A stretch of 64,000 nt of DNA from Dysidea avara. Its lineage: Eukaryota. The notes below the pieces were generated by a model that saw only the letters and a program-made list of their open reading frames with translations, did no database searches and was not told the DNA's origin. The position numbers and the translations under genes were made by a program. Position 1 is the first letter of the stretch. The number at the start of each line of letters is the position of its first letter. The DNA lies in contig NC_089281.1 of assembly GCF_963678975.1 (NCBI RefSeq), positions 27,729,151 to 27,793,150 of the forward strand, in the 5' to 3' direction. Positions 16,842 to 35,760 of this stretch are shown in pieces.

Positions 16842-16892
16842 CTGTTTAAAATAATCAGAACATTAAATATTTACACAGTGTCAGCATTCTAC

Positions 16893-16987
16893 CTCGCGAT
16901 GAAAGCGCTCTAGGATTTCTGCTACCATCTCCTTTAACTCAGTGAGTTGTATTAAGGTTTCATCAGGAGCAACTCTTAGGCTTTTTG
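16893..16987 (-). CDS. ITPR: IP3R-like exon (KSLRVAPDETLIQLTELKEMVAEILERFHRE)
   Basis: Acceptor ttcccattgttccaag|C and donor GAG|gtagaa. A 51-nt intron lies downstream. Phase is consistent with the flanking exons. Confidence 0.5.
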
Positions 16988-17040
16988 CTTGGAACAATGG
17001 GAAAAAGTCAGTCTTACCTTCCTTTATCTTCAATAGATAC

Positions 17041-17194
17041 TAGTAACTGACAGAAACCAAACACAGTAAATCACCTGTTGATATACATAGCTCTCTATAG
17101 CATTGTGGTCACTGACATCAATCCTCTCCAGGTGCAAGTAGAAGTAGATGTAATGCCACATGCAATGCTCATACTTTACATGATGGTTAAATCC
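17041..17194 (-). CDS. ITPR: IP3R-like exon (GFNHHVKYEHCMWHYIYFYLHLERIDVSDHNAIESYVYQQVIYCVWFLSVT)
   Basis: Matches IP3R [49 protein letters not shown]. Acceptor ctttag|G lies after a 55-nt intron. Donor CTA|gtatct is weak. Confidence 0.6.
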
Positions 17195-17249
17195 CTAAAG
17201 TACAGCAAACCTTAGACACACTTACAAAGGGATGTCCCATTAATTATAC

Positions 17250-17327
17250 CTCTGATCTTCTTTCAAATTCATAACTAGCAATGTTACAAATAAAGCAACT
17301 TCCCTTTATATCTGCTTCTATGCGCCA
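17250..17327 (-). CDS. ITPR: IP3R-like exon (WRIEADIKGSCFICNIASYEFERRSE)
   Basis: Contains the CFIC(G/N) motif that follows TM6 in IP3R and RyR (KTTCFICGLERDKFD). A 49-nt intron lies upstream. Donor GAG|gtataa. Confidence 0.65.
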
Positions 17328-17376
17328 CTATGTTAAATATATAAGTATAGCTACCGCTTACAACACTCATCCTTAC

Positions 17377-17523
17377 CCTTTCATTTCTCAGTTCAGAAAA
17401 AGTATCTACAATGATACCAAACACAATGTTTAGGCCAATAGTAGTCACAATAATAAAGAAGGTTAGATCAAAGAAGATAGTCCTGAGGGCAGCATCCTTG
17501 AAAGTCATTGGCAAATCAGTAGT
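17377..17523 (-). CDS. ITPR: IP3R-like exon, pore-lining TM6 (TTDLPMTFKDAALRTIFFDLTFFIIVTTIGLNIVFGIIVDTFSELRNER)
   Basis: Near-diagnostic match to IP3R/RyR TM6 [29 protein letters not shown]. Acceptor tttcatgctag|ACT lies after an 80-nt intron. Donor AGG|gtaagg. Confidence 0.75.
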
Positions 17524-17603
17524 CTAGCATGAAAGAGTTTGATGAATGTCAAATATACATATACAAGATGACCTTACAAATACATACACTAGGTGTGACT
17601 CAC

Positions 17604-17800
17604 CAGTCCTAAGGTGCTCAGTAAGCCATACTCTAACACACTAATAAAGCACTGAATGAGAGTGCGACAGAATCTAACATTATCTCCATCTTCTTCGGGA
17701 TCTGGTTCATGAAATTCATTAGCCAGAAGAGCAAATGTACCCACACTGTAAATGTACATTACTACGAGACCAAGTGCACCAACTGACAGCAATGAGCGAC
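17604..17800 (-). CDS. ITPR: IP3R-like exon, TM5 plus pore helix (RSLLSVGALGLVVMYIYSVGTFALLANEFHEPDPEEDGDNVRFCRTLIQCFISVLEYGLLSTLGL)
   Basis: Matches IP3R [32 protein letters not shown]...[24 protein letters not shown]. Donor CTG|gtgagt. The canonical GGGxGD filter is not encoded. Confidence 0.7.
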
Positions 17801-17850
17801 CTGTATTTTTACGACTAACAGGAATATTGCAAAGTTTATATAATCATTAC

Positions 17851-17891
17851 CATTCTTAGTAACAGATCTCAACACTCTTTGTAGTATGTCA
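17851..17891 (-). CDS. ITPR: IP3R-like micro-exon (DILQRVLRSVTKN, then G split across the intron)
   Basis: Matches IP3R LLNVIKSVTRNG and RyR TLRTILSSVTHNG. Donor G|gtaatg, followed by a 50-nt intron. Acceptor gattgttag|T. Confidence 0.55.
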
Positions 17892-18155
17892 CTAACAATC
17901 ACAATGTGCAGTAGACAAACACAATAGAAGTATCCATAAAACAGTAATGATAGTGCTGAGCACACCACAAACATCTACATGTACCATGTCAGAATACACA
18001 ATATAACTGATTCATACACAGTGTCTTACTAAGTGATATAGAGATCTCAGTCCTAACAATGGTTCATCAGAGTAAGTTGGATTTCTTTTTTTCTGAAGCC
18101 TACACAAGCAGGTATAAGTAACTATTTTACTTTGCTATACTATGATTATACTTAC

Positions 18156-18485
18156 ACATATTTATAGAAAAAATCTGGCAGGACAAAATTGGATAAGTTG
18201 ATGAGGAAGTAAGATATAACCATTGCAATACTCATCAAAAGGTGGATGCCACCTCCAATGAAGAGAGCATAGCCAAAAAACCAATGACTCCTGCCTTCAT
18301 TTTCAGGAGTAGTTGGAGTAAGAGATTTTGCTATTGTACATAAATCATGAGTACAGTCACCAGCTGTAAAATTATTGCTAGTGAAGTTGTTGTTATAACA
18401 GGAAGTTTCCAAACAAAAAGTATGTAGTGCCATTTGATCGACTGATAATTCTGTTCCTTCATCTGGGGCATTGTAGGTATATCCA
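18156..18485 (-). CDS. ITPR: IP3R-like exon encoding a Cys/Asn-rich luminal loop and a TM segment (…FCLETSCYNNNFTSNNFTAGDCTHDLC…SHWFFGYALFIGGGIHLLMSIAMVISYFLINLSNFVLPDFFYKY)
   Basis: HLLMSIAM matches RyR HLLDIAMG and IP3R SLLLFDLVY. Donor TATGT|gtaagt, phase 2. Acceptor ctattcag|T after a 51-nt intron. An alternative internal acceptor exists at 18364. Confidence 0.5.
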
Positions 18486-18536
18486 CTGAATAGACAATAC
18501 GGTAAATTAAATTATGTTAAAGATGTAACAACCTAC

Positions 18537-18614
18537 AATTTGAGATCAACATCACTCCAAGCAATTACCAACATGATGTTCATCACCAGTGTCCAAAGAA
18601 TGAGAAGGTAATTT
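18537..18614 (-). CDS. ITPR: IP3R-like exon (NYLLILWTLVMNIMLVIAWSDVDLK)
   Basis: Matches IP3R [22 protein letters not shown]. Flanked by 55-nt and 51-nt introns. Confidence 0.55.
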
Positions 18615-18669
18615 CTTAATTTTCTGTTATATAACTCATTACATTAATGGACAAGTTAAGGTAACTTAC

Positions 18670-18716
18670 AGGTTGTATACAAACATGTTCGTGTACCATT
18701 TTCCACGTAGGACTGT
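18670..18716 (-). CDS. ITPR: IP3R-like micro-exon (TVLRGKWYTNMFVYN)
   Basis: Acceptor ttataacag|ACA and donor CCT|gtaagt. The 51-nt upstream intron removes an in-frame TAA. Confidence 0.45.
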
Positions 18717-18767
18717 CTGTTATAAAATAGTGTATAAAATGTCAACCATGGTACATATATAGGATAC

Positions 18768-18890
18768 CAAATGATGAACTTCTTTCTTTATAGACATCAT
18801 CCAATTTAAAAAATCTCGAGTTTTGTCCTCAGGAGATCCACGACTCACCCGATATTTTACCTTTCTAATTATTTCTTCTGGAAGCTCATC
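18768..18890 (-). CDS. ITPR: IP3R-like exon (DELPEEIIRKVKYRVSRGSPEDKTRDFLNWMMSIKKEVHHL)
   Basis: WMMSIKK matches IP3R FWSSISFNLAV and RyR TWLMSIDVKY. Acceptor gaacaatag|GAT after a 53-nt intron. Donor TTG|gtatcc. Confidence 0.5.
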
Positions 18891-18943
18891 CTATTGTTCA
18901 CCCCTTGTTACACACATTTACACTATTATGTATGTATGCTCAC

Positions 18944-19092
18944 AGCAGGATAATATCTGAAGTGAACTTTAGCCAACACTTTCTGGTCCTCTTCATTATG
19001 ATAAAGCACCTCTATGCCTTTGGACCACTTTTTGCAATAATTCCAAGCCTCAGTAAGATATTTAGGATCTTTTGACCCAACAGTGACTGGTT
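18944..19092 (-). CDS. ITPR: IP3R-like exon (PVTVGSKDPKYLTEAWNYCKKWSKGIEVLYHNEEDQKVLAKVHFRYYPA)
   Basis: Matches IP3R [35 protein letters not shown]. Acceptor tgttttctttactcag|AA, donor GCT|gtgagc. Confidence 0.5.
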
Positions 19093-19149
19093 CTGAGTAA
19101 AGAAAACATGTCAAGAGCATGGAGTAAGCAGCTAATCACAAATTGTAAA

Positions 19150-19710
19150 ATGACCATTCTATGCATACAGTACGGTAGTACTATTTAGTAAGGTTCCCTC
19201 CTAAAGTGATGGGTGCCTCCCACCATTAAAAACCATCATACATGATGAAAATCGAATAACCTTAGTGTAACTAACATTAAATCCAGCATTAAAAACAAGA
19301 AAATACAGATGGCTGAATATTCAATTTTACAAAATGCTAAACTCAATTTTGGTATACTTGCCAGCCTTCCTGACCACAGTCGCAAGGCTAGAGGCCAAAC
19401 AAAGCAGCATATAGCCATCATTTCTTGCCACAATAACAAACTCACTGGCGGCATGTGCCTTTTCTGGTTCCAATGGGTGTCTACCATCTGCGCTTCCCCT
19501 TTCCTTTTATTTTCAATTACATGCTTGTCTTTTTCATGCAAGGAAACCGTACTAAGGCAGTAATTTTCTATATAAATACTTTTTTCCTGAGAGGAGCATA
19601 TTTATAGAAGCCACAATACTATTTGAAGCGTTTTAGCGACTGTAAGTGGAGTAGATACATGTAGCTGCACTTGTAAACAAAAACATGTATCGACCACACC
19701 CACTAAATGA
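19150..19710 (+). repeat. Dispersed repeat family copy 2 (CpG-depleted paralog of 2180-2740), inside an IP3R intron
   Basis: Homologous to 2180-2740, with CpG to TpG/CpA substitutions. ORFs 19236-19541 and 19309-19563 lie inside it and are judged spurious. Confidence 0.55.
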
Positions 19711-19879
19711 TCAGAACATGCTGCTCCACTCTTAGAGCATGCCATGACCATGCCTGTCAATGTAGTTTTGCTGTAGAAAATTAGACATGGCAAACAGATT
19801 GACATATTCTAATAAAGTAGTCATGGCCACACATGCAAAAAAAGAGAAAAAATTAACAAACTAGTACAATTATTAATTT

Positions 19880-20095
19880 AAAAATGAAGTAGGGTTCTAG
19901 TGATATAAAAAGTAGTGAAACAAGATAGAATGATGGTAGCTATTACAACATAGCTACGTGGGAAATACCTACTCTGGCATTGAACAGATATGCCAATGTG
20001 GGGATTTTCTTACATAGCTATGTTGTAATAGCTACCATCATTCATATTTCTTGTTTCACTACTTTTATCACTGGAATCCTACTTCATTTTTAAAT
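19880..20095. repeat. Foldback element, same family as 3110-3300
   Basis: gaagtagggttctagtgatataaaaagtagtgaaacaag...cttgtttcactacttttatcactggaatcctacttc forms a near-perfect inverted repeat. Confidence 0.6.
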
Positions 20096-20171
20096 ATTAT
20101 ATAATAATTTTTAATATATCATATCAATTATGGTAACAAAATGGTTGTCGTGTAATTGTATAATTACTAAC

Positions 20172-20256
20172 CAACATCGCTCAGTGAAATCCCCTCAAAG
20201 TCTGCCATGTGCACTAGTAAATGGTAGGCTTTAAATGCTGCTCTTTCTGCATCACC
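20172..20256 (-). CDS. ITPR: IP3R-like exon (GDAERAAFKAYHLLVHMADFEGISLSDV)
   Basis: Matches IP3R [25 protein letters not shown]. Acceptor tattatttag|G. Donor G|gttagt in phase 1 matches the phase-1 acceptor of the 18944-19092 exon. Confidence 0.55.
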
Positions 20257-21749
20257 CTAAATAATACATGTTGTGGAAAGTAATGTTTAGTGCAAGTAGA
20301 TAAATGTATTCATAACAATCTGGCTCCTCCATAAAGTAAGGTAAATGGAGGTAACTCTGTGAATATTTTGTATTCATGTTCATAACGATCAACAAAACTG
20401 ATTGCAACTAAATTTGGCTACAAGCAACATGTGTTTATAAATATAATTATGAGAACTAAGCAAGTACAACTATTGCACAGAAATAGCTAGATAGAGACTT
20501 CGCTATAGCAAAGTTTGTTGTGCTACATACCTTTAATAAAACTGCATTATCATAAAAACCAGAGTAGCTAGAAACTACCACTTTGATACAGGTAATCACC
20601 ATAACCTGCATCTCAAATGGTAAATGATGGTTTAGAGGTTACAGCTCATCATACTTGAAATTCATGAAATTACTTCAGTCACGAAGTTACCTCCTTACAG
20701 GGTTACTTCCACCCACAAGATATATGCATATATGGATGAACCCATAAATGAAGGAAGACAGATTGAAGATTGGAAGATATTTGTTTCAAATGTGTTCAAA
20801 GAGTTGGGTATTCTTAGTAATCTTTCCAACCAGCCACTCAGATCTATATCTACAGTGCTTAAAAGGCCATTGTGCATGAACAATAGTTTGTGCATACAAA
20901 ATTGTTTACTACCCGAAGATAAAGATATTGAGGATAAAGTTATTGGTGAACCTGAGGACTATGCATTGTAACTTTATAATGTAAAATTCTGTACCTGTAT
21001 TATAGCCGTATGCTATTACTGTTTGTGGTGTATGTGCCAATGTATTGTGCACCTGACAAATCATCTGAAAAAAATGTATTAGTATATATAACACTTTCAC
21101 ACCTCAGGCCAAAGGAATTTCAGAGGATACATTTGCAGTGTAAACCTCTTTTGTGTAAGTGGACACACATGTTTCCAAAATTGGCAATGCCACATTTTGG
21201 AGAGTTGCTAAAATTGGCAACAATTGAAGTAGCCAGTGGAAATCCTCGGGTTGCCAATTTTAGCATTTCAGTGACTTAAAAGTTGCCAATTATCATAATC
21301 ACTTGATTCCATAATTTGCCAAAAATGTCAAATTTTAGGCATTTTGACAGTTGCCAAAAGTGGCTCCAAAACATACCACAGTGATTGCCCATACCAAAAA
21401 TGGCAATCATAATATTTACATCTCTATTCTTTACACCTCATTCAAAAATCAGAAAGTAGTCTATACATGCAATGCCTACTGGACTACTAGCTATTAGTTT
21501 ACTAGGTGAAGTGTTACGCACTCTGATATGGAAATGCATGCCCTCAGCCCTGCCATACATATCAGGTATATCTTAAATGCCTATGTTACAACTATTACAA
21601 ATATTAATATTGTGGATAAGCTTACTATGATATGTGACCAAGGAGATGTAGCCAGAAATATTTAGTAGGCAAGGCATACATGACTGTTCTATTAGAGAAT
21701 CTCGATCTTTTGTAGTATTAAATTCTTACATGATTAGTTAAGCTCAAGA

Positions 21750-22040
21750 GTACAAGTACACAAAAAAAAGAATTTTCAACTAGAGTAGGGACAATAGCAC
21801 ATCGATAAAATGTACTGAAACAAGCTTGAGTAATGTACAATAATAAATCACAGTAAAACAATAAGAAGTGCATCCCTACAATGCTCAAGATACCACAATG
21901 GAATTGCACAGCAGGGATATAACACTTCTTATTGTTTACTGTGATTTAATATCATGCACTACTCAAGCTTGTTTCAGTACATTTTATTGATGTGCTATGG
22001 TCCCTATTCTAGTTGAAAATTCCACACTTTTTGTGTACTT
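21750..22040. repeat. Long hairpin or inverted repeat (arms about 130 bp)
   Basis: 21752-21880 (…agtagggacaatagcacatcgataaaatgtactgaaacaagcttgagtaatgtacaataataaatcacagtaaaacaataagaagtgcatccctaca) is the reverse complement of 21905-22040. Confidence 0.55.
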
Positions 22041-22059
22041 GCTTGTTAACTTTTTTTGT

Positions 22060-22700
22060 AAAATAAAATTATTATGACTGGTGAACCCACGCATACTGCA
22101 TCAAAAGAAAGAAATGGTGCTGCACACCCCAGCTATCAGTTATTGTCTGAAAAGTGAAGTATCCATTACACTTCGTTGTTAGCTATGTTCAACCCGCTAC
22201 CCAGCATTATGAATCAAGAACTGTTCGAAAAGCACCTTTGCAATCAAAGTAGCCACTTTGAAAATACGGATGATTTCTGTTACAAAGGGAAGCCATCATG
22301 TGCTACTGCCAAATCGACACCTTTTGCTGTATGATGAATGTGACACAAATGAAGACACTGGCAAGTCCATGAAAAATGCATTGTACACACTGCGGTATGC
22401 CAAAAGACACATGTCTGGCTGAAGATCGAACAGTGAAAAAAAATCAAGCATGTAGCATTCAAGTTATGCTTGTCTGAAGGTATAAGTCAGTCAGTTACTC
22501 ATGCAGTCAGTCAGTAGAAAATTCCGTTTAATAATTTAAAAAAAATTCAACTTGTTGAAAGCATTTCGGGTCGATCAGAAGGCTTTTACGTAACCAATAC
22601 TGCTTCATCGTTGTCAGGGAAAAGTGAGGCTGGCTTTTGGGTAATTTTTCATGGGCCACGCCTACATCTTTGTATACAGAACTATCATACTGTACTGTAA
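22060..22700. repeat. Composite dispersed repeat family (ATTATGACTGGTGAACCC..GCATACTGCATCAAAAGAAAG plus AAATTC..GGTAACCAATACTGC modules), copy 1
   Basis: Shares modules with 29700-30500, 32100-32560, 33400-34780, 45790-46660 and 56200-56620. Short ORFs inside (for example 22280-22462) recur across copies and are judged non-coding. Confidence 0.5.
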
Positions 22701-23108
22701 AATAGGATCAGTAGGTCAGTATGCAAAAACAAATAAAAGGAGTGCAAAAATAACAAATTAAAAGTAGTGGTATGGTCTCGATGCTAATTTGCAGCAATAG
22801 TGTGTTGTGAGAAGATACTTGTAGATGGTTAAATGCATTAAAAATGATTCAAGGCTTGTGCTTAGAGTTAATGGTGATATTTTAGCTCAAGTTTTTTACT
22901 AACGAAAATTTATTTTAATTTTTCAATCAACTAAAAATTTGGATTGATTGGGCTTGTGAAACAAGTAATCAAGTTGACATGGCCTAGCTATGCCACTGAT
23001 GATACTATTATTTGCTGCCAGAATGAACAAAATTGGACTGCTGGTTATAACATGTGCAATCAACTACAGGAATTTGCTATCACACTGCCAGGTTATTCTG
23101 TTATTTAC

Positions 23109-23267
23109 CGTTAAATGAGTTTGACTGATGTGTTCGTAAAAATAAGCCAAAGTGCATTGAAGGGCCTCAATGTCAATCCCTTTAAACATAGTCTGTACAA
23201 GTCTTTCTGTCCCTGGATCTGTTTCTTCACACATTACTTCCAGCAGCTCAACTGCTGCCTGTTTCAA
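23109..23267 (-). CDS. ITPR: IP3R-like exon, approximate (…AAVELLEVMCEETDPGTERLVQTMFKGIDIEALQCTLAYFYEH…)
   Basis: Resembles IP3R [38 protein letters not shown]. The 5' boundary is not determined. Donor ACG|gtaaat. Confidence 0.4.
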
Positions 23268-23700
23268 CTCAAGAACCTATTTGCATATACATTTGTTTAA
23301 CAGTAACATAATTTCTCACGTACCTTTATGAAAGAACACTGTTGAATTTCTGGAGTTTGCATGATGCGATTAATAGTATCCACAATTTGATAATTAAACA
23401 GGACTTGTTGATTAGCAAAATTTCCCTAGAAAGACATTCATAGTAATAAAAGTATACTGAAATAAGAAACTTTTCTCAACCTATAACATAATTTTTGGTC
23501 GATCATTGGCCACAAGGTGGGCTGGTTTTTAATCGATATTTTTTTGGCAGAAAAGTGCAAACTTTTATTATCCTTATTACCACTACTGCATGATATTAGG
23601 ACTTTTAAAATAAACAATGTTGGACTCATGGACCTCAAAAGCTTTAAGCCACACATCAGGTCACATAAAAACATTAACAGTACAATAAATGGAAACATAC

Positions 23701-23922
23701 CACGCTCATTTCAATCATAGTCTTAAGTACTTGGGTAATAAGTTTAATATTATCCTTTGTGACATCAACATAAAATGATGATAAAAATATGCATATCTCA
23801 GACACAAGATTGATAGTCTTTATATTATCTGGTTGCTGTCTGAGGTAGTTTTGCATTGGCCGATATTGACCATCACAGAGTAAACCAATCACTCGAAGTG
23901 CTAGTTCAATATAAGATGAATC
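23701..23922 (-). CDS. ITPR: IP3R-like exon (DSSYIELALRVIGLLCDGQYRPMQNYLRQQPDNIKTINLVSEICIFLSSFYVDVTKDNIKLITQVLKTMIEMSV)
   Basis: Strong match to IP3R/RyR [37 protein letters not shown] and [27 protein letters not shown]. Acceptor caag|GAT, donor GTG|gtatgt. Confidence 0.65.
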
Positions 23923-24707
23923 CTTGAATTGGAGTGACCTGTATTTCTTAGTAGCTTCACTGGAGGTTTTCTTGTCCTAAACAGAGTGATTTGTAAGTAT
24001 AAAAAGTACAGTGCCACAATAAACTGTGGTGTATTTTTGAAATCTATATATAGCAATAAAGTCAGAATGTAATATATTAAAACATGCAACTATCCTCAGG
24101 TTATACTAAACAACATACATATTGTTTTTGTAGCTCCTGCAGCTGAATTTCATTCTTTGCTAATCCAGCTTCTAAAAGCTAATAAATTAACCACAATCAG
24201 AAATTGCAAATTATTTCATGATTACTACCTCAGACACAGTCATTTGATCTGTTCGCTTTCTCTTCTTTCTACTGGTATAATTAGGACCAGTGATAGTGAA
24301 ATGACCACTTGCGGGAGAAGCAATACCATGTATAGGGGATAGTGTCTGCATTTCATAAACTTCACCCTACAAGATTATCACATACGTACATAATACCAAG
24401 AGTATAATGGGGGGGGGGAGGAAGAGTGTTGAACTGTGCTATACAGTGTGAAAAATGATCCCATAAAGTCTTATGGCAATGTTCAAATGATTCAGTGATT
24501 TGTGACCACTTATAAATGCAGTTGGCGTACTTTGTACATGTACGCGCATACACAAGAAGAAAGAGTGAAAGAACAGCATATTTGATAAAAGTATGGTACA
24601 TTGTGGAGAGGAACTCAGTACAAAAAGAAGACACAGGCAGCTAACCTGGAAAGCAGACATTACCAGCATCGATGCTGCCTTGGATGAATCCAAGTTCCAG
24701 TTCTCAC

Positions 24708-24857
24708 GTATGCTATATTCTGAATATCAACCTTGCACGTGATGTCTTCATTTGAGATTTCATCATGGTCACCATCCCCTACCTCGATGGTTCTTCTAGC
24801 AAAAGTGGCACGTTTAGATGGAGTTTCAGCCATTGCGATTCCATGCGGACCACCAGC
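24708..24857 (-). CDS. ITPR: IP3R-like exon (AGGPHGIAMAETPSKRATFARRTIEVGDGDHDEISNEDITCKVDIQNIAY)
   Basis: Matches IP3R [26 protein letters not shown]...DDLEMSAV. Acceptor tagttcaag|G, donor TAC|gtgaga. Joins in frame to the 23922 exon. Confidence 0.5.
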
Positions 24858-25639
24858 CTTGAACTAGTAATGTGTTAAATCTGGGCAATCAGCTGTGGTC
24901 AAGTTTACAAGAGGAAATGAAGGTATGCAGGTTACTGTACAGGCTCATTTTTCACAGCTTATAGTGCAGTTCAACACTCTCCCTCTCCGATTACATGCTC
25001 TTGATAATACTAGTAGGGATCCACATGAAAGTGAAGATGACAGACTAAAACACTCCAGCAAGCTTGCTCTATCAAATCACTTGATACAGCATGCAACATG
25101 CTAAATGTTCATGGTCTCAAGCTGCTTTGGTTTTCAGCCATCGGGTTGTTTTTCCTTCTTTATTTATTTTTTAATTCTTCTTAGCTTAATAACACAACTA
25201 GCAATGTTGCTTAGACAGACGGGCTCCATTTGCACTAATGTAACAACAAGAGTTCATTATATGTATACTGAGGAGAGTATCCTACTCTCGTATATACCTG
25301 TAGAAGGGTGAATCATAATGTGGTTGTGGTTTGTGATGTATGGACAGCCGTAAAAGTCTAAGAATCATTTGCACTGTGCGACACCCCCAACACTACTCAG
25401 AAGATATGCATTCATGAATAGCCTAGCAAGAAATGTGTGTGCACCCATGAAGGCATAGTTTGGTGAGAAATGCTGAGAGCTCAAGTTAGATTGGTTGCTA
25501 GCAATGTTGTTGGACATGCATACAATCAATAATCGTGTTCTATTAATAATTATACAAAGAGAAACAGAAGTACTGTATTATAACTTTACAATACGTCCTT
25601 CTATAGTGGTACATGACAGTAGGATCCATTCAAAAATAG

Positions 25640-25870
25640 CTAAGCTGTAAAAGAAGGATGTGGCTTCTAAAACCTGGGTTAAAAAGTTGTAAAATTAAAG
25701 GTGGTGGCCAAGAAATGGCTGCAATGATGTTAATGCCAAACAAATTTAATAACGCACCCTGATTGGTGTTAACATCATTGCAGCCATTTCTTTGCTGACA
25801 CCTTTGATTTTACAATTTTTTCACCCAGGCTATTGAAGGCTGCACCCTTTTTTACAGCTTAACTGTTTTT
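25640..25870. mobile_element. MITE family A copy (TIR about cAAAACAGCcaaGCTGTAAAAAAGG with internal GGTGGTGGCCAAGAAATGGCTGCAATGATG hairpin)
   Basis: Terminal gctgtaaaagaagg...ggctgcacccttttttacagct, with an internal palindrome ggccaagaaatggctgcaatgatgttaa // ttaacatcattgcagccatttcttt. Confidence 0.5.
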
Positions 25871-27439
25871 GCATATTTTTTGTATTTCAAATATCCCAAA
25901 TCCAGCTATACATAAACTGGGAACTTTGTTTTTACCCAATTTCCTCTTATCTACATGCACAATGATGATTATGTAAGACAGAAATTACAATAGTATTTGC
26001 ATAAGCGACCAACTATCAACTGCATGGTATGTATTATATCAACCTAACAAAATAATGAATTCCTCCATAAACTTGTACTTGTTTGCTGGGATATTCTAAT
26101 GGTTTCTGTCCTCTTTTATAGGTTTTTAACCATCAGAGAAAAATTTTACAATATACTAGGCCAAGTACTTCCTGTTGCAAGTGCAAAGGCAAGTCACTAC
26201 ATTTCAGCGGAGAAGAAGGTGACAAATGCCCAAAAACTGTAAACAATGGAAACATACAGCCTCAGGTTTTATCAAGACTCACGGTAGTGAGTTGTGCGGC
26301 CAAGAAAAGTAGGGCACGCGACTACTGTGAGTTATTTACACAAACAACTAACTCTAATAGAATGCACACCTAAAATCTACCTTTAAAACTATTCTTTTGT
26401 AAAAAAAACCTCGCGATACAACAAAACCTTTGGTATATTGCTATATAAGCATATTACTAAGTAAGTAATCCCTGTTATATTTTAGTAACACTGCATGAAA
26501 TTTTGCTGAAAACGTCGTATTCTTCTCCCTCCTTCTTCTTCGCATATTCGTTAGCACGAGTTGCCCATTCTTTTACTCTTATATCTTACACTGTCATTAT
26601 TATTCCACAGCCTTGGATTCACTATCACAAGTTCTTTGGCTAGTTAAGTTTCTTCAGTACAAATCTTGGAACTCCACCTCTCTTACGAGAGCCACCATTA
26701 GCGATTTTCTCAAAGTTTGATTCATTCGTTCTTCCGCTTCATGGGACAATCTTTGATATGTAATTAAACATATGGAGTAGTTTTGCTTGGTTATGACCAG
26801 CCATTTTTCTGGGAAGTGGTGAGTTAATTTCCATATGTGATAATAACGTTGCCTACACTAATTGCTGATTTATTTTGCGGTCTTTTAGAACCCCATCTTA
26901 AATTTAAGACACCTCTAAATACAGTAGCGTTTATTGACAGTCGGTGAACTCGGTGCAAATTAGGCCACAAGCGTCAACGCTAGGTGAACATGATCAGTGT
27001 AGTAATCTCAATGAACTTGCTATGCATGCTATTCTTGTAAGTGTTTGTTATTCCGTTGTTATTTAATAATGGGTCTAAAGTAGCTAACGTAGTCCACAAT
27101 ACAGCTTTTTTGTGCATGTCAACGGACAATCCAGTACAATAAGAAGTTTGGGGCACATTCTCACCTGCCGGGAAATGGCCTTTACTCAATCGGTTCACTG
27201 ATGGTTTTAATCAAAACAGAAGCCATACCCTACTGAGGTTGCAATACCGACAAGTACCTGCCTACTTGTACCAAACTACATTCTTTGGTTTTGCCACTTC
27301 ATGTCCCAAGCTATGATGTGGTACACACAATAACTGTTGTAGCTGTTGTGATATCCTAAGGTGGCTTGTATGAAACTAGCTATTAACTTTATGCATTAAT
27401 TTTTTGTTCTTGCTCAGTGAGAAAAATGTGTGATATCCT

Positions 27440-27905
27440 AAAACAAAAACAGCCTTGGGGGCTGTAAAAAAAGGGCACTGCCAAGCAAAGTAGGATCAAT
27501 CAAACAAGCTTATTCAACATGACTGGTAAGAACAAGAACTGATATCAAGTTGCGGCCAAGTAGATTGGAATATTACCATGTTCAATCTGTTAAACAACTG
27601 GTACGAACAAGGACTGATATCAAGTTGCGGCCAAGTGAATGCAGTATTACCCATTCTCTTTGTATCTAGCTATAGCTATATAATAAAACTAGAGCAAATA
27701 CACATGAAACTGTTATTAAATTGTCAGTTGGCTGCTTTTTAATTGTTTGTACCAGTTGTTTAACAGATTGAACATGGTAATATTCCAATATACTTGGCCG
27801 CAACTTGATATCAGTTCTTGTTCTTACCAGTCATGTTTGATTGATCCTACTTTGCTTGGCAGCGCCCTTTTTTTACAGCCCCAAGGCTGTTTTTGTTTTA
27901 GGATA
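27440..27905. mobile_element. Large foldback or MITE (about 460 bp near-perfect inverted repeat). Family A-like termini
   Basis: aaaaacagccttgggggctgtaaaaaaagggcactgccaagcaaagtaggatcaatcaaacaagc...(centre about 27670)...gcttgtttgattgatcctactttgcttggcagcgccctttttttacagccccaaggctgtttttg. The arms carry an internal tandem repeat of about 63 bp. Confidence 0.6.
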
Positions 27906-29541
27906 GATCCTTACAACTGTAATGAAGCCTGATACACATCTAACTGATATGCTGAATTGATTGCTATACGATTGAATGCACCCTTGCTCAATGAAGTGGA
28001 AAAAGCAGCCAGGTTATTCTATTTAGTCTTCAGAAAGTTAATTAATAAATAATTAATCAACCAGTCTAATTTTCATTGTTGTTCTATTGATAAACACAGT
28101 ATATCTCGATTTCCAATCATGCAGTTGATCTGAAACATGGTGAGCGTATACATTATTACATGCTGAATTTCATCATCTATGGCAGGATAGGACAGAGTTT
28201 TCAGATGCAGTGCATATATTAACACCTAGTTGATAATTTATATATGGAAAATATACATGTAATTGATAACAAGTACTGGTGGTCAATAATACCTACTTTG
28301 TATGGTCTAAGTCTACTGTGAAGAGTGTTGGTTTACAAAAATTGGGACCACATATACTTTATAGCTGTACAGCTGGAGCGGAGTTAAAGGATGAAACTTG
28401 GTTGATAATTGGTCGCTTACTCTATTCTATATATTACAGATTTTATTTGACTGATTTGTATAATAGTTTATTGTATTTTGAATATCCCAAACCCAGCCAT
28501 GAACTGGTTTTGGGGCTCATTTTTACTGTACCAAATTTCTTCTTATCTACAAGCACAATGATGATCATGATTCTGGAAGACAGGATTTACCATACACTGT
28601 ATTGATTTATTTTTGGAATATCCTAATAGAGCACACATTTTTTGAGGACTTCTAATAGAACACACATAGAATGTAGATTTTCCATTGTTGGTAGATTTAA
28701 GAAATTATGAATTTTTAACATTTGAATTTTCAATTATAAGGTAGAAATTAAGTAAGCTGAGCAGCTGACAACAACAGTTTCAGAGGTTAAGGGTTTGGGA
28801 GTTAGATATGGAGGTCCCTGGTTTAAACTTTGGGCAACACTTTTGTTAATGTGTTTTGTGCACTTTATACTTGGAGACTGTCCTATTACAGTACTTTGAC
28901 CTTATGATTTTACATTGTGTTAGTTTTTGTAACTCTGTAACTCTCACTACAATTTCTTTTAAACCACATAAGGTTTGAGCTATGATAATTAGCCTATGCA
29001 CAGAGTAATTTTCAAGCCATTTTCTTAGGCAGTTTACCCTGCAGGCATGACAAAAAATTGGTCTTTTTTACTCAAATAATCATCCATAACTCCATGAATA
29101 CTATTTTATCAAATTTGCAGCAGACTTGGTATGTGAATTCATCTCAATAATGTCCTTAATCTATGTGGCAATTAGAGTTGTGTATTTGCATTTTATACAG
29201 CTGTTGTAAAGTGTGGAAAGAAAAATTAAGTCCCCAGAAAAACAAAGAAAAAAATGAAGAAATCCATCCTACCTTTGAGGGCTTGTACTACACAAAATTA
29301 ATGCATAGAGCAATTTTGCATGCTGAAATTTGGAATGTGAGGTGCTGAGGGTGGCTGGCAGCTATAATGCAAAAGTAGTGTGTTTTCAAGAAGAGACCAA
29401 GGAGCTATGCATGCATGAAAAACATGTTTTCTTTCCTCCTGTCAATATACTCATTGTGTGGCACACTGTCTTTCTTGGCCACACAACACATTAGCATGTG
29501 TCTTGATACTCTATCCAGCATATATGAACTCTTGGAGGGTT

Positions 29542-29548
<7 letters not shown>

Positions 29549-29616
<68 letters not shown>
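29549..29616. repeat. (AC)34 microsatellite followed by (AT)5
   Basis: Direct reading. Produces the artefactual ORFs 29405-29725 and 29415-29678 (CVCVCV... and HTHTHT...). Confidence 0.9.
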
Positions 29617-29627
<11 letters not shown>

Positions 29628-29699
29628 ATACAACACACACAATTAGTGTTTGCATGCACTATACAGAAGTTCAGATAACTGGAGTTCGAGTAACTGAAG

Positions 29700-30500
29700 T
29701 TCCATTGCATTGAAGGGGGGATCAAATATCCACTAGTATATCTGCAGGTGTAGGCAACCTACCTTGTTTCCCTACTTTTTTCTATCAAACCTAAAATTCC
29801 TAATTTTTCCTTATACTTGTTTGTTTACTTTTTTGTAACATTATTATGACTGGTGAACCCAGGCATACCGCATCAAAAGAAAGAGTGGCATCAAAGTTGA
29901 TGTTTTCATCTGAACGTGTGCCCCAGCTCCACATTTTCCATGGTAACCGGATCGATTGCAGATGTACTTTTCTTACTGTTCTTTGTTTGTTATGCTGTGA
30001 AACGGGCTGAACATAGCTGAAAGCAAAGTGCAATGGCCACTTCACTTTCAAGTCAGTGTACAAACATAGGGAAGCCATCAAGGAGCTACTGTAGATCGAG
30101 AACTTGGGCTGTCAGCAAAAGAAGTGGGACACAAAGGAGTAAGTTCATGATGCGTACATTGTATGTATTGTGGTATGCCAAAGGCATGTCTTGGGACGAA
30201 GTAATGTTGAACAAATCAAGTACATAGCCTTAGCTGTTATCGAGTTATGCTTGCCTAAAAGCACCAGGCAGGCAGGCAGTTAGTCAGTAGAAAATTCCAT
30301 TGAATAAATTTAAAAAAATTCATAACAAGCATTTAGGGTTGTACTGAAGGCACTTTAGGGCTTGGCTGTACCTAACCAATACTGCCAAGACACCAGTATG
30401 GTATTGTGAAGCTGGTTTTTGGGTGATATTTTTAGCCACAAAAAACCAAACCTCCATGATCCCAAATATACAGTACTACTGTACTGCTGTACTATATGAT
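29700..30500. repeat. Composite dispersed repeat family, copy 2
   Basis: Shares the attatgactggtgaacccaggcataccgcatcaaaagaaag, ccatggtaaccggatcgattgcag and aaattcataacaagc...cctaaccaatactgccaag modules with the other copies. Confidence 0.5.
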
Positions 30501-30953
30501 TCAGAAGGATAATTGCCCAAGTTCAACAATGTGAAAATGATGATAATTTAGCAGTATAAGTTAAATGTTCCCAACAGCCATGGCAGGCAAACATACACAA
30601 TACTGGCTTATAACATAGCTGCTTTCAATCTAAATAACTCATACCGATACAAGTAATTTCTTGGCAGTAATATCAACAGCATCATCAGTACTTGGCAATA
30701 CAGAAGGTTTCCTGAAACCTCCAACCTGATCTAATATCTCTGTGCTCTCAGAAAAACCTGTATCAACATTAAGACCAAAGGCTTCCTATGACATTTACAT
30801 GTCACACAACACAGTACATAATATATACACATACTTGGGCAGTTGGTTTAACAGTTTGAATCCCACTACCACGAGCAGAATTAGTGACAAAAGTGTCTCT
30901 CTACAAAACACATAATCTATAATATTTTCCACATGAGTAAACTTGTTAGTTAC

Positions 30954-31100
30954 CAAAACTTTTTTTCCCTCCACATGTGATTCAAGCTGGGCTAGAAGTG
31001 TCCTTCTTTCACGATCATTTATGGCAGCTTGTTGCAAACGTTGTTGCATGCTAACAAAAAGCTTTTCCTCTCTGGTGTGCATAAGATAGCTAAACCCTTT
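30954..31100 (-). CDS. ITPR: IP3R-like exon (KGFSYLMHTREEKLFVSMQQRLQQAAINDRERRTLLAQLESHVEGKKVL)
   Basis: Matches IP3R [31 protein letters not shown]. Acceptor gatttgatacag|AAA after a 62-nt intron. Donor TTG|gtaact. Confidence 0.55.
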
Positions 31101-31162
31101 CTGTATCAAATCATTCATTACTTAATTTATACTCTGTGGTATAACATATTAGCACTGCTAAC

Positions 31163-31258
31163 CTGAACAGTTTCATTTCCAGTATACAGCAGGATTGATA
31201 AGAAAGCTAATACCTCTGCAGCAATTTTCTCATTAGGATGAGAGAGCAATTTTACTAT
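31163..31258 (-). CDS. ITPR: IP3R-like exon (IVKLLSHPNEKIAAEVLAFLSILLYTGNETVQ)
   Basis: Acceptor ttattattag|ATA after a 55-nt intron. Donor CAG|gttagc. In phase with neighbouring exons. Confidence 0.5.
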
Positions 31259-31313
31259 CTAATAATAATGTTTATAAACAGTTTGCATTAACAGTGACAG
31301 TAAAAACACATAC

Positions 31314-31377
31314 TCTTTCAACAGTACTCCCAAGTGATTGAATTTGATTTTGAACTGATACCACTCGTTCAGATAAC
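31314..31377 (-). CDS. ITPR: IP3R-like exon (LSERVVSVQNQIQSLGSTVER)
   Basis: Resembles IP3R [22 protein letters not shown]. Acceptor gtgtatgcag|G, donor AGA|gtatgt. Confidence 0.5.
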
Positions 31378-32099
31378 CTGCATACACCATGTACACAACC
31401 CATTTAAATTAACAAAATGGATTCACTTCCTGAAGAGAACAGGATCTTGTCCTTCTTTTCTGAGACAAGGATCAATATGCATAATCTCATTGTGAACTAT
31501 GGTTCTGAGTACATATAAGTATCTGATATCATTTTTGTCTTGTTTCTGTCGTTCTTTTTCATCATCAAGGTCAGCCAAGTTGTTATAGGATGATCTTAGG
31601 AATGTATTTTAACTACTGTTACACTTATGTTAGAGTCTAACTTACTCAAGGCAGTCAATAATTCTTTTAGTGTGTGGTTGAACTGTGCTTTTAAACATGC
31701 CACGACTGCAATAAGACAGTATACAGTGTATGTTATGTCCTAACAAAAGTTTACTTCTTACGCAACATAAAGAGAAACATGTTCCTGGAAAGATGGTCCT
31801 AAAGGAAGCCACTCATCACCTTTTTCATCTTTTTCACCTTTTTCATCTTTTTCATCACCTTTTTCATCTTTTTCATCACTGTAATCTATGCAACATTATA
31901 TAATGTGATCTAAATAGCATTGTATCAAATTTATTTACCAGTTTTGTATAGTGATCCAATCTGATGTTGTGCAGTATTCGGTCCCCAGTAAGCCAACTGA
32001 TAGTTTCTAACAAAATTGTTGAATTCCTCATTTAGCGATCTTTCCCGTTGGTAGACACATTCATATTTCTAAATAATATTTGAATTAAATTTTATTCTT

Positions 32100-32560
32100 A
32101 CAGTATGGCCCACATTCAACACTCCAGAGTGAACATGCTTGTGTGCTCACTGGTCACAAAGGTATTATCATACAGTACAGTAGTACTGTATATTAAGGAT
32201 CATGGAGGTTTGTACTTTCTCACAAAAAATATTGACCAGAAACTAGCCTTACAATACATTTATAATAGCACCTTGAAAGTATTGGTTAGGTATAACCAAG
32301 CCCACAACATGACCCAAAATGCTTCCAATAAGTTGCCACAAAATTTAATTTTTCCATTCAGTGAAGTTTTTTGCTGACTGACTGACTTGTTAATATCTTC
32401 AGACAAGTGTAACTCAATTACAGTTAAGGCTACAGGTTTATTTTTTTCACTGTTAGACATCACTGCAGTTTGTGAGGTACCTTTTGCATACCGCAGTATG
32501 TACACTGCATGCATCATGGACTTACCTTTGTCCTCCATTTATCTTCGCTGACAGTGCAGG
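32100..32560. repeat. Composite dispersed repeat family, copy 3 (inverted orientation)
   Basis: Reverse-complement match to the 22500-22680, 30290-30490 and 34380-34600 modules. Confidence 0.45.
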
Positions 32561-33399
32561 GTGCCAATTTGTGGTAGCACATGATGAAAAGTGACTTCCC
32601 TACATTTGTAAGGCCATACCTATTTGAAAAGTTGTTTCTCAGATTTATTTTACAACAAAATGGGTCAGTCAGTAGGAAAAAAAAACAACAAAAACAGCTA
32701 ACTAATTTCAGAAATGCTTATCTTTCAAAAATATATGTGCAAGTCAGATAAAATATTTGTAGCTACTGCACTGTCTGCAGTCATGTCAAATACCTTCTAG
32801 TTACAAGCTATGTAGCTACTAGTAGCTATTGTAAATGGAAATAAATGTAGCTAGTAGCTAACTACATACATATAGATAGCCCAATGAGTCATGGATGACA
32901 ATGAAGTATATAGCTTTATGTTAGCAAAGAAGTATAGAGCTACACTGGTTTTAAGGGAACTACGCTATAAATAATGTTACCTTTCAAGATTTTACACACT
33001 GACTGTTCTATTAGAGTATCTCAATCATTTTGTACAAAATTCTAGACGTCACATGATCTAGATTTTTCTAATTAAAATCTATGCAAAATTGGGTCGGTCA
33101 GGTCCGAGCAACAACTTTTTAAATAGGTATGGCCTAACAGGAATTGTCCATATTTTCCATAGTGACTAGATTGATTGCAGAGGTGCTTCTCATAATAATC
33201 AGGGGTGGCTCTAGGGGGGTTTCTGAGGCTTCCGAAAACCAGCAGTCACGTTCAGATCAAGATACTCTAATAGAGCAGTCAATCACTCTTATAAAGCAGT
33301 CACAGTGGTCAGAGCAGCAGTGTAGCAAGCTATGTAGAAATAATTAAGGATTTTGTGTACTTTATCAGTGATATTAATAGTTAGTGGAAGGCAGTTATC

Positions 33400-35439: not shown

Positions 35440-35760
35440 CAGCCAAGCTGTAAAAAAAGGAGTGCGGCCCTTGAAAAGGCTATGGTGAAAAAAGATGTGA
35501 AATCCAAGGTGGCGGCCAAGAAATGTCTGCGATGGTAGGTTAATGGTAAAAATTTTAATAACAACACTTCAAGTGAATTTGGTGCCGCTTGGTCAATTGG
35601 CAAAAAATTTACCTGAATTGTCGTTATTAAAGTTTTTACCATTAACCTGCCATTTCTTGGCCGCCACCTTGGATTTCACATCTTTTTTCACCATAGCCTT
35701 TTCAAGGGCCGCACTCCTTTATTTACAGCTTGGCTGTTTTTGATTAGATTTCACTTCTTT
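35440..35760. mobile_element. MITE family A copy (hairpin arms 35461-35525 and 35653-35718)
   Basis: aaaaacagccaagctgtaaaaaaaggagtgcggcccttgaaaaggctatggtgaaaaaagatgtgaaatccaaggtggcggccaagaaatg is the reverse complement of catttcttggccgccacc...ggccgcactcctttatttacagcttggctgtttttg. ORFs 35433-35642 (minus) and 35543-35743 (plus) are mirror-image artefacts. Confidence 0.6.

Follow-up and report, generated by a model that had tools for sequence, protein, structure and literature searches.

A sponge gene of the IP3R-B type encodes a pore loop without the GGGxGD selectivity filter

Introduction

The IP3R/RyR superfamily includes the vertebrate ITPR1-3 and invertebrate IP3R proteins (IP3R-A), the RyRs and a further subfamily, IP3R-B, known from published accounts (PMC7992859, PMC9113742). 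Of the branches of the superfamily, IP3R-B is understood least, and almost nothing is known of its gating or permeation. Limpet, polychaete, leech, and acorn worm have genes of this type (IP3RB), which vertebrates, fly, and nematode have lost; one leech paralog marks touch neurons (PMC7992859). IP3R-B "could not bind IP3," as reported for the Capsaspora protein (PMC9113742). In IP3R-A, single substitutions of a filter glycine abolish function, as with G2498S in IP3R2 and G2506R/A in IP3R1 (PMC7939385). The filter itself reads GGG[VI]GD in IP3R-A and GGGIGD in RyR. Among other P-loop channels, filters with a T-[VIL]-G core occur in NaK (TVGDG), CNG (TIGET), and TRPV1 (TIGMGD). In the abstract of a 2015 study by Alzayady, the Capsaspora IP3R-B is said to have shown no IP3-evoked Ca2+ release.

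Here we describe an IP3R-B-type gene in a window of 64,000 nucleotides, the whole stretch of sponge DNA that we analyzed. With known IP3R-B proteins (Capsaspora CO.IP3R-B, leech ip3rb1 and ip3rb2, and IP3RB of limpet, polychaete, and acorn worm), the window protein shares its clade, a length of about 2,500 to 2,650 amino acids, and the order of its domains. Its IP3-contact set is likewise incomplete, and the taxon distribution of its clade is as published (PMC7992859). In common with IP3R-A, it has the six-transmembrane (six-TM) domain, the pore helix, the S6 gate motif, the zinc finger, and an N-terminal architecture of the RIH, RIH-associated, and MIR type, and IP3R-A proteins are its best matches in the PDB and by fold. 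It differs from them in falling into a separate clade, in reading TLGLTT(D) where they have GGG[VI]GD, in seven changed residues of the IP3-contact region, and in a luminal loop after the filter that is 3 residues shorter. With RyR, too, it shares the fold of the pore domain and the region of S6 and zinc finger, but the gene is colinear with proteins of about 2,600 and not about 5,000 amino acids, and the GGGIGD filter is missing. The sponge core [ST]-T-[LI]-G, with an acidic residue within 3 to 4 positions (STLGLTTD in the window, DTLGSTAD in the orthologous locus L001), resembles weakly selective filters of P-loop cation channels; with no homology past the general fold, this may be taken as a functional analogy and not as a classification.

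Results

The recognizable part of the gene occupies most of the window (Table 1). By tblastn, it is colinear with IP3R-like relatives of 2,560 to 2,630 amino acids, from their residue ~95 to 110 to the C terminus, and also with the sponge locus L002. A draft dynamic-programming chain joins 728 conserved blocks over 45 kb without frameshifts. This chain is not a final annotation: it contains five filler micro-exons (1 to 20 nt), one retained in-frame intron, and one split-codon stop, and it uses a 17355/17317 junction that is poorer than the manually curated 17377/17327, and so it serves only as evidence that frameshifts are absent. We found no convincing match to the first ~95 codons in 62,050-64,000; these residues probably lie beyond 62,034 or past the end of the window. 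The large introns of the gene contain retroelement and satellite insertions. An Rfam scan of the window gave no matches.

Table 1. Coordinates of the IP3R-B-type gene and its features in the window
Feature	Positions	Strand	Remarks
Recognizable IP3R-B-type gene	16881..62034	minus	~50 GT-AG exons, at least 2,150 codons
N-terminal ligand-binding-region exons	57421..61278	minus	
MIR-like block, GGSIVRLFHRELECYLVAEG	60849-60751	minus	
R265 region, HLRKRKS...STSAITYWQIE	60696-60595	minus	
K508/R511 exon, ...KDHQKLLRNL...	57836-57726	minus	
R568/K569 exon, (S)RKNENYLARF	57526-57422	minus	
RIH-associated exon, ...ALRVIGLLCDGQYRPMQNYLRQQ...TMIEMSV	23701..23976	minus	
Luminal loop, S2 to S4, S4-S5 linker ...SVTKNG (three exons)	18484-18156, 18099-18030, 17974-17851	minus	GT-AG at every boundary
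Exon with S5, turret, pore helix, and first half of pore loop	17604..17800	minus	
S5, RSLLSVGALGLVVMYIYSVG...	17798-17721	minus	
Acidic luminal turret, NEFHEPDPEEDGDNVR	17720-17673	minus	
Pore helix, FCRTLIQCFISVLEYGLL	17672-17619	minus	
First half of pore loop, STLGL	17618-17604	minus	
Intron dividing the pore loop, gtgagt...gctag	17524..17603	minus	80 nt, GT-AG, phase 0
Exon with second half of pore loop and S6, TTDLPMTFKDAALRTIFFDLTFFIIVTTIGLNIVFGIIVDTFSELRNER	17377..17523	minus	
Second half of pore loop, TTDLPMTF	17523-17500	minus	
S6 and conserved gate region, ...IGLNIVFGIIVDTFSELRNER	17499-17377	minus	
Exon with cytosolic S6 extension and CxxC half of C2H2 zinc finger, WRIEADIKGSCFICNIASYEFERRSE	17250..17327	minus	
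Exon with zinc-finger His pair and C-terminal domain, GFNHHVKYEHCMWHY...ESYVYQQ	17075..17194	minus	aligns to ITPR2 residues 2573-2620
Final exon, C-terminal coiled-coil-like tail, YLLKIKEGKTDFFPLFQAKSL...REVEC and TGA	16881..17039	minus	

RIH, RIH-associated, and MIR regions lie upstream of the channel domain, as is characteristic of the superfamily. For Pfam, we scanned the N-terminal and central segments as concatenated stop-free pieces, a procedure of limited sensitivity on fragmented exons. RYDR_ITPR, at 25.0 bits, passed its cut-off of 22.3, and MIR, at 16.9 bits, stayed under its own, in a region that is nonetheless colinear with MIR-containing relatives. The same scan of these fragmented exons, with its limited sensitivity, detected neither SPRY nor RyR-repeat domains, and in this and in its length the protein departs from the RyR type (about 5,000 amino acids with SPRY domains and RyR repeats). 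The best conserved block of the gene is the RIH-associated exon, to which 69 guide proteins aligned with scores as high as 91 bits; its single-exon relatives at 71 to 85% identity bear Pfam PF08454. Two acidic positions in this exon, here D and E, presumably correspond to the RyR1 Ca2+ sensor residues E3893 and E3967, with which we matched them by eye.

The initial annotation had described the C-terminal exons as IP3R/RyR-like, and our searches agree. With phmmer, the spliced C terminus found ITPR2 as its best sequence match in the PDB (E = 4.9e-37) and also RyR1 (5.9e-26), and Pfam Ion_trans matched it at 2.9e-14. The three exons in 17851..18484 align to ITPR2 residues 2341-2421. The six-TM cation-channel domain that marks the superfamily is present with its S5, pore helix, loop, and S6. 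An AlphaFold model of this region (mean pLDDT 80) contains S5 (helix 65-94), the pore helix (112-125), a 13-residue loop, and a long S6, with a helix at 272-296 in the C-terminal tail predicted at pLDDT >90; the loop is modeled with moderate confidence (pLDDT ~65) in what is a monomer, mute on conduction. The top Foldseek matches of the model were IP3R3, IP3R1, and RyR1-3.

We then turn to the pore loop, which the initial annotation had found to lack GGGxGD. This proved correct. The first exon ends in ...STLGL at 17604 with the donor CTG|gtgagt, and the second begins at 17523 with the acceptor tag|ACTACTGAT; donor, 80-nt intron, and acceptor are as originally read. The spliced loop between pore helix and S6 is LEYGLLSTLGL|TTDLPMTF, where GGGxGD would be expected. 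HMMER and MAFFT agree in aligning TLGLTT(D) to GGGVGD with zero indels, and in length the loop is exactly canonical, with the conserved GLLS...LP residues on either side. Indeed, GLLS-TLGLTTD-LP matches the choanoflagellate GLLS-GGGLGEA-LP position for position, and the ITPR1 filter likewise. Compared with the canonical filter, only the third glycine is kept, and the acidic residue is displaced by one position. The window loop is derived through substitutions alone. When all six frames of the whole window were scanned, no GGxG[DE] turned up within the gene on its own strand.

The same junction occurs in other sponges. In the orthologous sponge loci L001 and L006, an intron interrupts the loop at the identical codon and in the same phase, and the loop reads LEYGLLDTLGS|TADLPM[ND]FNDAA; the L001 intron is 58 nt long. 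The sponge paralogs P0017 and P0025 also have an intron at this point of the loop, and the corresponding stretch of the Dysidea avara RefSeq protein is GLPDPISLAADLPQKF. The window, L001, and L006 all have the aspartate of T[TA]DLP and a turret in which 7 of 16 residues are acidic. The loop is kept in orthologs of at least two other sponges, and related [DNST]-[TN]-[LI]-G loops are found in other sponge paralogs. In S6, residues F165, I168, D170, T171, F172, and R176 are invariant in our alignment (A1).

The eight 3′ exons all have GT-AG boundaries and form one open frame to the TGA at 16883-16881. The exon with the CFIC motif begins at 17327 (catag|TGGCGC) and not at 17303, after an intron of 49 nt. 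The initial annotation had let CFICN follow TM6; with its acceptor at 17303, this reading skipped WRIEADIK. With these residues restored, CFIC stands 13 residues past ...SELR, the S6-CFIC spacing of all relatives, which read [WYF]-x-x-E-x-D-x-K-x-x-CFIC in this region. The C2H2 zinc finger (CxxC...H...H) then has canonical spacing. It is completed by HHVKYEHCMWHY in the following exon, and alignment A1 shows hardly any variation at its cysteines C190 and C193.

To place the protein, we built a neighbor-joining tree and then ran 200 bootstraps from which the pore-loop columns were left out. The window protein, L001, and Dysidea grouped together in 100% of bootstraps, as did a wider sponge clade. 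The IP3R-A references fell outside the whole clade in 100% of bootstraps, and other protist clades did so in 99.5%. It spans the holozoans: its named members are Capsaspora CAOG_04510, choanoflagellates (S. rosetta PTSG_02461), three Amphimedon proteins, Dysidea, Patella (a mollusc), Saccoglossus (a hemichordate), Branchiostoma (a cephalochordate), Tubulanus (a nemertean), Ridgeia (an annelid), and Intoshia (an orthonectid), and it takes in several sponges. The window protein thus clusters with Capsaspora and invertebrate IP3RB-type proteins and outside the vertebrate ITPR and invertebrate IP3R sequences. From the taxon distribution, and from CAOG_04510 being different from CO.IP3R-A (XP_004347577.1), we infer that this clade is the published IP3R-B. 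The window gene is an ancient paralog of the canonical IP3R, in the IP3R-B clade, and neither an IP3R-A nor a RyR. The initial annotation had considered a lineage-specific paralog; a paralog it is, but one from an ancient, holozoan-wide clade, with loss of the filter in all named animal members. The best database identities of the window protein are 53 to 57% to Dysidea avara, with 70 to 82% reached only by unannotated fragments of metagenome-assembly contigs. Sponges have several paralogs, at least three of them in Amphimedon. We found no canonical IP3R-A of demosponges among the sequences searched. Two candidates for a sponge IP3R-A, P0158 and P0239, were rejected; their contig ORFs run uninterrupted for up to 822 amino acids and probably come from an intron-poor protist.

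How general is the loss of the filter? In the clade of 72 members, 51 have non-canonical filters and 21 canonical ones. Every named metazoan member that we examined is without GGGxGD; the named members with a canonical filter are choanoflagellates, which have mostly kept GGGLGE. Since the loss is common to all named animal members, it is not peculiar to the window genome. The missing glycine filter is a feature of the animal IP3R-B family and not a defect of the window gene. The statement that every characterized IP3R carries GGGVGD, made in the initial annotation, fits IP3R-A, with 112 of 116 controls canonical (annelid, mollusc, and cnidarian sequences included), but not the superfamily, where 71 of the 162 relatives in the alignment depart from GGGxGD. 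The loops of sponge, bilaterian, and Capsaspora members diverge greatly from each other. Two contigs that resemble spliced transcripts of paralogs (L007 and L008) have non-canonical loops inside uninterrupted ORFs. The literature searched made no mention of animal IP3R-B without GGGxGD, which Alzayady et al. (2015) may report.

A dN/dS comparison, proposed in the initial annotation, indicates purifying selection. Over 263 codons, the window gene and its ortholog gave dN = 0.158, dS = 1.07, and omega = 0.15. Omega was also 0.15 for the pore helix and loop, and 0.078 for the exon with loop and S6. The introns of the two genes cannot be aligned. The window gene is intact and under evolutionary constraint, and with a low dN/dS, overall and in the pore helix and loop, it is not a pseudogene.

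Finally, we examined the residues that contact IP3, which we take to be R265, T266, T267, G268, R269, R504, K508, R511, Y567, R568, and K569 in rat IP3R1 numbering. Five of these about 11 contacts are kept (R265, K508, R511, R568, and K569). From pairwise alignments and a reading of the junctions, the changes in the region are T266K, T267R, G268K, R269S, R504K, R506H, and Y567S, with the alignment of the 265-269 loop being approximate. The complete IP3-coordinating set that characterizes IP3R-A is thus absent. A reading of YSKNENY at the Y567 position was discarded as an intronic frame, the true junction being SRKNENY. The basic pocket is retained in part, which is compatible with IP3 binding or with its absence and neither proves nor excludes it.

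Discussion

What does this protein do? We lean toward a reading to which we give somewhat better than even chances: a tetramer of six-TM subunits that would form a P-loop channel of an internal membrane, conduct cations through a remodeled filter, and be gated without classical IP3 binding. The protein would most likely still assemble in this form, having retained S5, the pore helix, a highly conserved S6 with its gate phenylalanine, the C2H2 zinc finger, both Ca2+-sensor positions, and the acidic turret. In the filter, threonine hydroxyls, backbone carbonyls, and one aspartate would replace the glycine carbonyl ring and let cations pass, and permeation properties would differ from those of IP3R-A. 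Gating other than by IP3 is suggested because only 5 of about 11 contacts are kept and the Capsaspora IP3R-B was reported not to bind IP3; the gate may instead be driven by Ca2+ and/or an unknown ligand. The divergence of the loop among sponge, bilaterian, and Capsaspora members counts against a single filter chemistry across the subfamily.

A possible but less likely alternative is that the pore is dead: the protein would fold and tetramerize like an IP3R without conducting, and would instead sense a ligand or Ca2+, form a scaffold at membrane contact sites, or be a regulatory subunit. The high variability of the loop among lineages of the clade would be expected if precise filter chemistry were dispensable, and the lack of IP3-evoked Ca2+ release reported for the Capsaspora IP3R-B would also fit. 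IP3R-B is described as failing to bind IP3 (PMC9113742), and since single glycine substitutions give dead pores in the IP3R-A filter (PMC7939385), a loop without four of five glycines could be non-conducting. However, few parts of the protein are as conserved as the pore-lining S6, the gate phenylalanine, and the pore helix, and the loop is under purifying selection within sponges, at the omega values given above. The protein has also kept the T[TA]DLP aspartate and the acidic turret, features that usually draw cations to a permeation path, and its T-[LI]-G core may recall the filters of conducting P-loop channels.

An error in the gene model, be it another splice site, a mutually exclusive GGGxGD exon, or a misassembly, is very improbable. 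The earlier model did have a wrong acceptor nearby (17303 for 17327), but no frame of the gene's strand holds GGxG[DE] anywhere across the gene, and the pore-loop junction is reproduced by L001, L006, and the RefSeq Dysidea protein. Transcript-like contigs of paralogs carry non-canonical loops in continuous ORFs, and the loop, flanked by the conserved GLLS...LP, is exactly as long as a canonical one.

Least credible of all, and contradicted by the evidence, is the recently inactivated copy of the initial annotation, a decaying pseudogene whose odd loop reflects relaxed constraint: the canonical motif is missing, insertions sit in the large introns, and no 5′ end was located within the window, but all 3′ exons are open in frame with GT-AG throughout, the blocks along the 45-kb chain show no frameshifts, dN/dS is 0.15 (0.08 in the exon with loop and S6) at a dS of ~1.07 with introns that no longer align, intron positions are conserved and two other species (L001 and L006) share the loop, and the trait is common to a whole ancient clade.

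The reading of a conducting channel with a remodeled filter can be extended, tentatively, to the family. Animal IP3R-B as a group may have swapped GGGxG[DE] for lineage-specific loops and become organellar channels with an ion selectivity unlike that of IP3R/RyR, such as channels of weak selectivity or for monovalent cations, with Ca2+ or an unknown ligand to operate them. The sponge core would be [DNST]-[TN]-[LI]-G and have an aspartate close by, next to the strongly constrained S6, gate, and Ca2+-sensor positions. We regard this wider proposal as less likely than not.

The window gene is a further member of a known and functionally unexplored subfamily. In animal IP3R-B, the filter is lost yet S6 and the gate are constrained, and this offers a directly testable hypothesis of function. 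The natural loops TLGLTTD, DTLGSTAD, and DNIGLLLP could serve as probes for the filter features that conduction and Ca2+ selectivity require. For annotation, invertebrate "ITPR-like" genes without GGGxGD should not be flagged as pseudogenes. In demosponges, where the subfamily is expanded and our search found no canonical IP3R-A, it is even conceivable that stores release Ca2+ mainly through IP3R-B; if this is true, a glycine-poor filter passes Ca2+.

Results

The channel gene lies on the minus strand, and we read its 3' end by translating the reverse complement of positions 16,800 to 18,600. Eight GT-AG-joined exons gave a single open frame. Translation reproduced S5, the pore helix, the end of the first pore-loop exon, its donor, the following intron and its acceptor, all as described in the initial annotation. 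The proposed match of the C-terminal exons to IP3R/RyR was confirmed with HMMER, with E values of 4.9e-37 for ITPR2 and 5.9e-26 for RyR1, and Pfam Ion_trans matched at 2.9e-14. The annotation had also placed CFICN after S6. The CFIC exon stands, but its start moves from 17303 to 17327, since relatives share the post-S6 consensus [WYF]xxExDxKxxCFIC and the window has an in-frame counterpart, WRIEADIKGSCFIC. With this acceptor, the spacing from ...LR to CFIC is the canonical 13 residues. HMMER aligned GGGVGD with TLGLTT without a gap. A six-frame scan of the window found no GGxG[DE] on the channel-gene strand inside the gene, so the claim that no alternative frame or splice choice yields GGxGD is true across the entire locus.

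Positions of the channel-gene pore features, repeats and neighboring genes in the window
Feature	Position	Strand	Details
S5	exon 5' of 17604	minus	RSLLSVGALGLVVMYIYSVG... (translation)
Pore helix	same exon as S5	minus	FCRTLIQCFISVLEYGLL (translation)
End of first-half pore-loop exon (...STLGL)	17604	minus	donor CTG/gtgagt
Pore-loop intron	between 17604 and 17523	minus	80 nt
Start of second-half pore-loop exon	17523	minus	acceptor tag/ACTACTGAT
Translation after this acceptor	from 17523	minus	TTDLPMTFKDAALRTIFFDLTFFIIVTTIGLNIVFGIIVDTFSELRNER
CFIC exon start	17327	minus	acceptor catag/TGG; upstream intron 49 nt
Stop codon	16883-16881	minus	TGA
Microsatellite	61356-61482		(GT)63
Stop-free stretch	60849-60585	minus	GGSIVRLFH...VVIEE-GISYITHLCYINVYLILV-HLRKRK...
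31-bp satellite	42678-43418		~20 copies
706-aa ORF	39093-41213	minus	RVT_1 25.4 bits, below cut-off; FADD motif
31-bp satellite	36046-38028		65 copies; unit CTCTCTACAGGGTGATTTGTTTGTAGCTGAA
Non-LTR retrotransposon fragments	9051-9737 and 10650-11027	minus	...KLFADDCIIYK... and ...CPISLTCIPCKIFEHVLY...; RVT_1 E=5.8e-4 (weak)
Sideroflexin exon	6851-7051	minus	Pfam SFXNs E=5.1e-17
Sideroflexin exon	4976-5152	minus	weak Pfam SFXNs match

Conserved minus-strand exons are colinear with sponge locus L002 from 62,046 to 18,723, and with relatives of 2,560 to 2,630 aa from about residue 95 to 110 of the latter to the C terminus. Homology-guided dynamic programming chained 728 conserved blocks into a draft gene model (62,034-16,884) of no fewer than 2,150 codons, split among about 50 GT-AG exons. 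The draft contains filler micro-exons at unrecognized, weakly conserved exons and one split-codon stop, and we therefore used it solely as evidence that no frameshift breaks the chain of conserved blocks. Upstream of 62,040, the window gave no match to the first ~95 codons, which probably lie outside it.

Two introns are very large. One of them, of ~16 kb (48.3-32.1 kb), holds two satellite arrays bordering both sides of a GC-richer segment with a weakly reverse transcriptase-like ORF; this is either a retroelement inserted in a satellite array or an element with tandem terminal repeats. The microsatellite is intronic and close to the 5' end of the recognizable gene, and CA/GT-derived runs in other introns translate as HTHT... 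and CVCV.... The stretch at 60849-60585 carries a short in-frame segment that resembles an intron and that all relatives lack; any gene caller trusting open frames would keep it. Downstream on the same strand is a sideroflexin (SFXN) gene, and degenerate non-LTR fragments lie between the two genes.

We then considered the relatives, the best 150 of 4,723 at an E value of ≤1e-3 in an exhaustive HMMER search. Among named proteins, one of the demosponge Dysidea avara is nearest, at 53% identity, followed by Amphimedon. Numerous unannotated single-exon fragments with 70 to 85% identity sit on large metagenome-assembly contigs, consistent with sponge host DNA. On this evidence, a demosponge is the most probable source of the window. 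We built a neighbor-joining tree and 200 bootstrap replicates from which the pore-loop columns had been removed. The window, the orthologous sponge locus L001 and Dysidea grouped in 100% of replicates, and additional sponge sequences, two Amphimedon paralogues among them, joined this group in 100%. All replicates (100%) separated the whole clade from the references for canonical IP3 receptors (IP3R-A), and 99.5% separated it from other protist clades. It includes Patella, Saccoglossus, Branchiostoma, Tubulanus, Intoshia and Ridgeia, the choanoflagellates S. rosetta, S. infusionum and Hartaetosiga, and Capsaspora CAOG_04510, which differs from the Capsaspora IP3R-A accession, XP_004347577.1 (PMC9522344). 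This taxon set agrees with the "understudied" IP3RB subfamily, inferred in the bilaterian ancestor, found in limpet, polychaete, leech and acorn worm, and lost in vertebrates, fly and nematode; leech touch neurons are enriched for one IP3RB paralogue (PMC7992859). We infer that the clade is IP3R-B, a label drawn from topology and taxa rather than an accession-level match.

Sponges appear to have an expanded subfamily: no fewer than three paralogues occur in Amphimedon (P0009, P0104, P0105), and their noncanonical loops differ. Two distinct RIH-associated fragments (P0056, P0065) on one 1.66-Mb ENA contig suggest tandem duplicates. The transcript-like contigs L007 (810 aa) and L008 (470 aa) of sponge paralogues hold ORFs that are uninterrupted where the window has many exons, and their loops are noncanonical. 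A compact, intron-poor, full-length relative of 2,629 aa (L003, 6133-10630 of the 930-kb contig ENA ERZ25766962; proteins P0079, P0081, P0015; pore loop GLLDTIGQFIPQR) falls with the sponge clade, flanked by galactosyltransferase and RING-finger genes; its ORFs are long, unlike the ~50-exon gene of the window.

The pore loop reads LEYGLLDTLGS/gtaagt...caag/TADLPMNFNDAA in L001 and ...DTLGS/TADLPMDFNDAA in a second orthologous locus, L006, and the intron sits at the identical codon and phase in both loci and in the window. The dN/dS check for purifying selection proposed in the initial annotation, run against L001 over 263 channel-domain codons, gave dN=0.158, dS=1.07 and omega=0.15; counting just the pore helix and loop, omega was again 0.15, and in the loop and S6 exon it was 0.078. 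The pore-loop introns (58 nt in L001) are unalignable. Together these values exclude the annotation's suggestion of a recently inactivated gene copy.

AlphaFold modeled the C-terminal 297 residues, at a mean pLDDT of 80, with S5, a pore helix (112-125), a 13-residue loop (pLDDT ~65) and a single long S6 helix (139-188); IP3R3, IP3R1 and RyR1-3 were the top structural matches. In the alignment, S6 residues F165, I168, D170, T171, F172 and R176 are invariant. A CxxC...H...H zinc finger is present, and the acidic luminal turret, NEFHEPDPEEDGDNVR, is conserved in L001 and L006. RyR1 E3893 and E3967, which we take to be the Ca2+ sensor, correspond by eye to D and E in the RIH-associated exon. In the N-terminal region, IP3-pocket residues R265, K508, R511, R568 and K569 are kept, and T266, T267, G268, R269, R504, R506 and Y567 are changed.

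Aligned with ITPR1, the loop is GLLS-GGGLGE-ALP in S. rosetta and GLLS-TLGLTT-DLP in the window. The latter matches the canonical loop exactly in length, retains the third glycine and has an acidic residue moved by one position; it arose through substitution alone. Sponge paralogues have NTLGLELG, TTLGSELD, DNIGLLLP and DTIGQFIP, and bilaterian members GDLFD..., DGMYNTFEQ... and ESFHESIG.... The loop is noncanonical in 51 of the 72 clade members, including all named animals, and canonical in 21, the named ones being choanoflagellates. IP3R-A-type controls (spider, corals, oyster, cuttlefish, a siboglinid annelid, vertebrates, an ichthyosporean) kept GGGxG[DE] in 112 of 116 cases. Siboglinids have both subfamilies: Lamellibrachia IP3R-A is canonical and Ridgeia B-type is not. 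The odd loop is explained and is not an anomaly peculiar to this genome.

Beyond animals, the filter is also lost in Capsaspora CAOG_04510 (ENGLASVGIAD, GLENGLASVGIAD) and deviates in one choanoflagellate (GLRDGVIFPGGE), while other choanoflagellates retain GGGLGE, suggesting repeated, independent loss within the clade (proteins P0075 of Capsaspora, P0111 of Hartaetosiga, and P0078).

Discussion

We show that the channel gene, of IP3R-B type, is full length, intact and under constraint, with a derived, conserved loop as its filter. The protein would assemble in an internal membrane as a tetrameric P-loop channel, conducting cations through a remodeled filter of threonine hydroxyls, backbone carbonyls and one aspartate beneath the acidic turret; permeation would differ from IP3R-A, and gating may be by Ca2+ and/or another ligand. 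We lean slightly toward a conducting protein. The T-[LI]-G...D pattern resembles the filters of NaK, CNG and TRPV1, which may serve as a lead. The main rival, a pore-dead sensor or scaffold, is possible and distinctly less probable; in its favor, the loops vary widely within the clade, and in IP3R-A the pore is killed by substituting a single glycine (PMC7939385). A pseudogene is highly improbable given the low omega and the unalignable introns. A gene-model artifact is also highly improbable.

This is an additional sponge gene of a known subfamily, and its orthologues are already in databases as "ITPR-like." The searched literature does not mention that animal IP3R-B receptors lack the glycine filter clade-wide and carry lineage-specific loops under purifying selection; the original subfamily paper may report this. 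The loop described here points to a clear and inexpensive experiment on a receptor branch that is unexplored.
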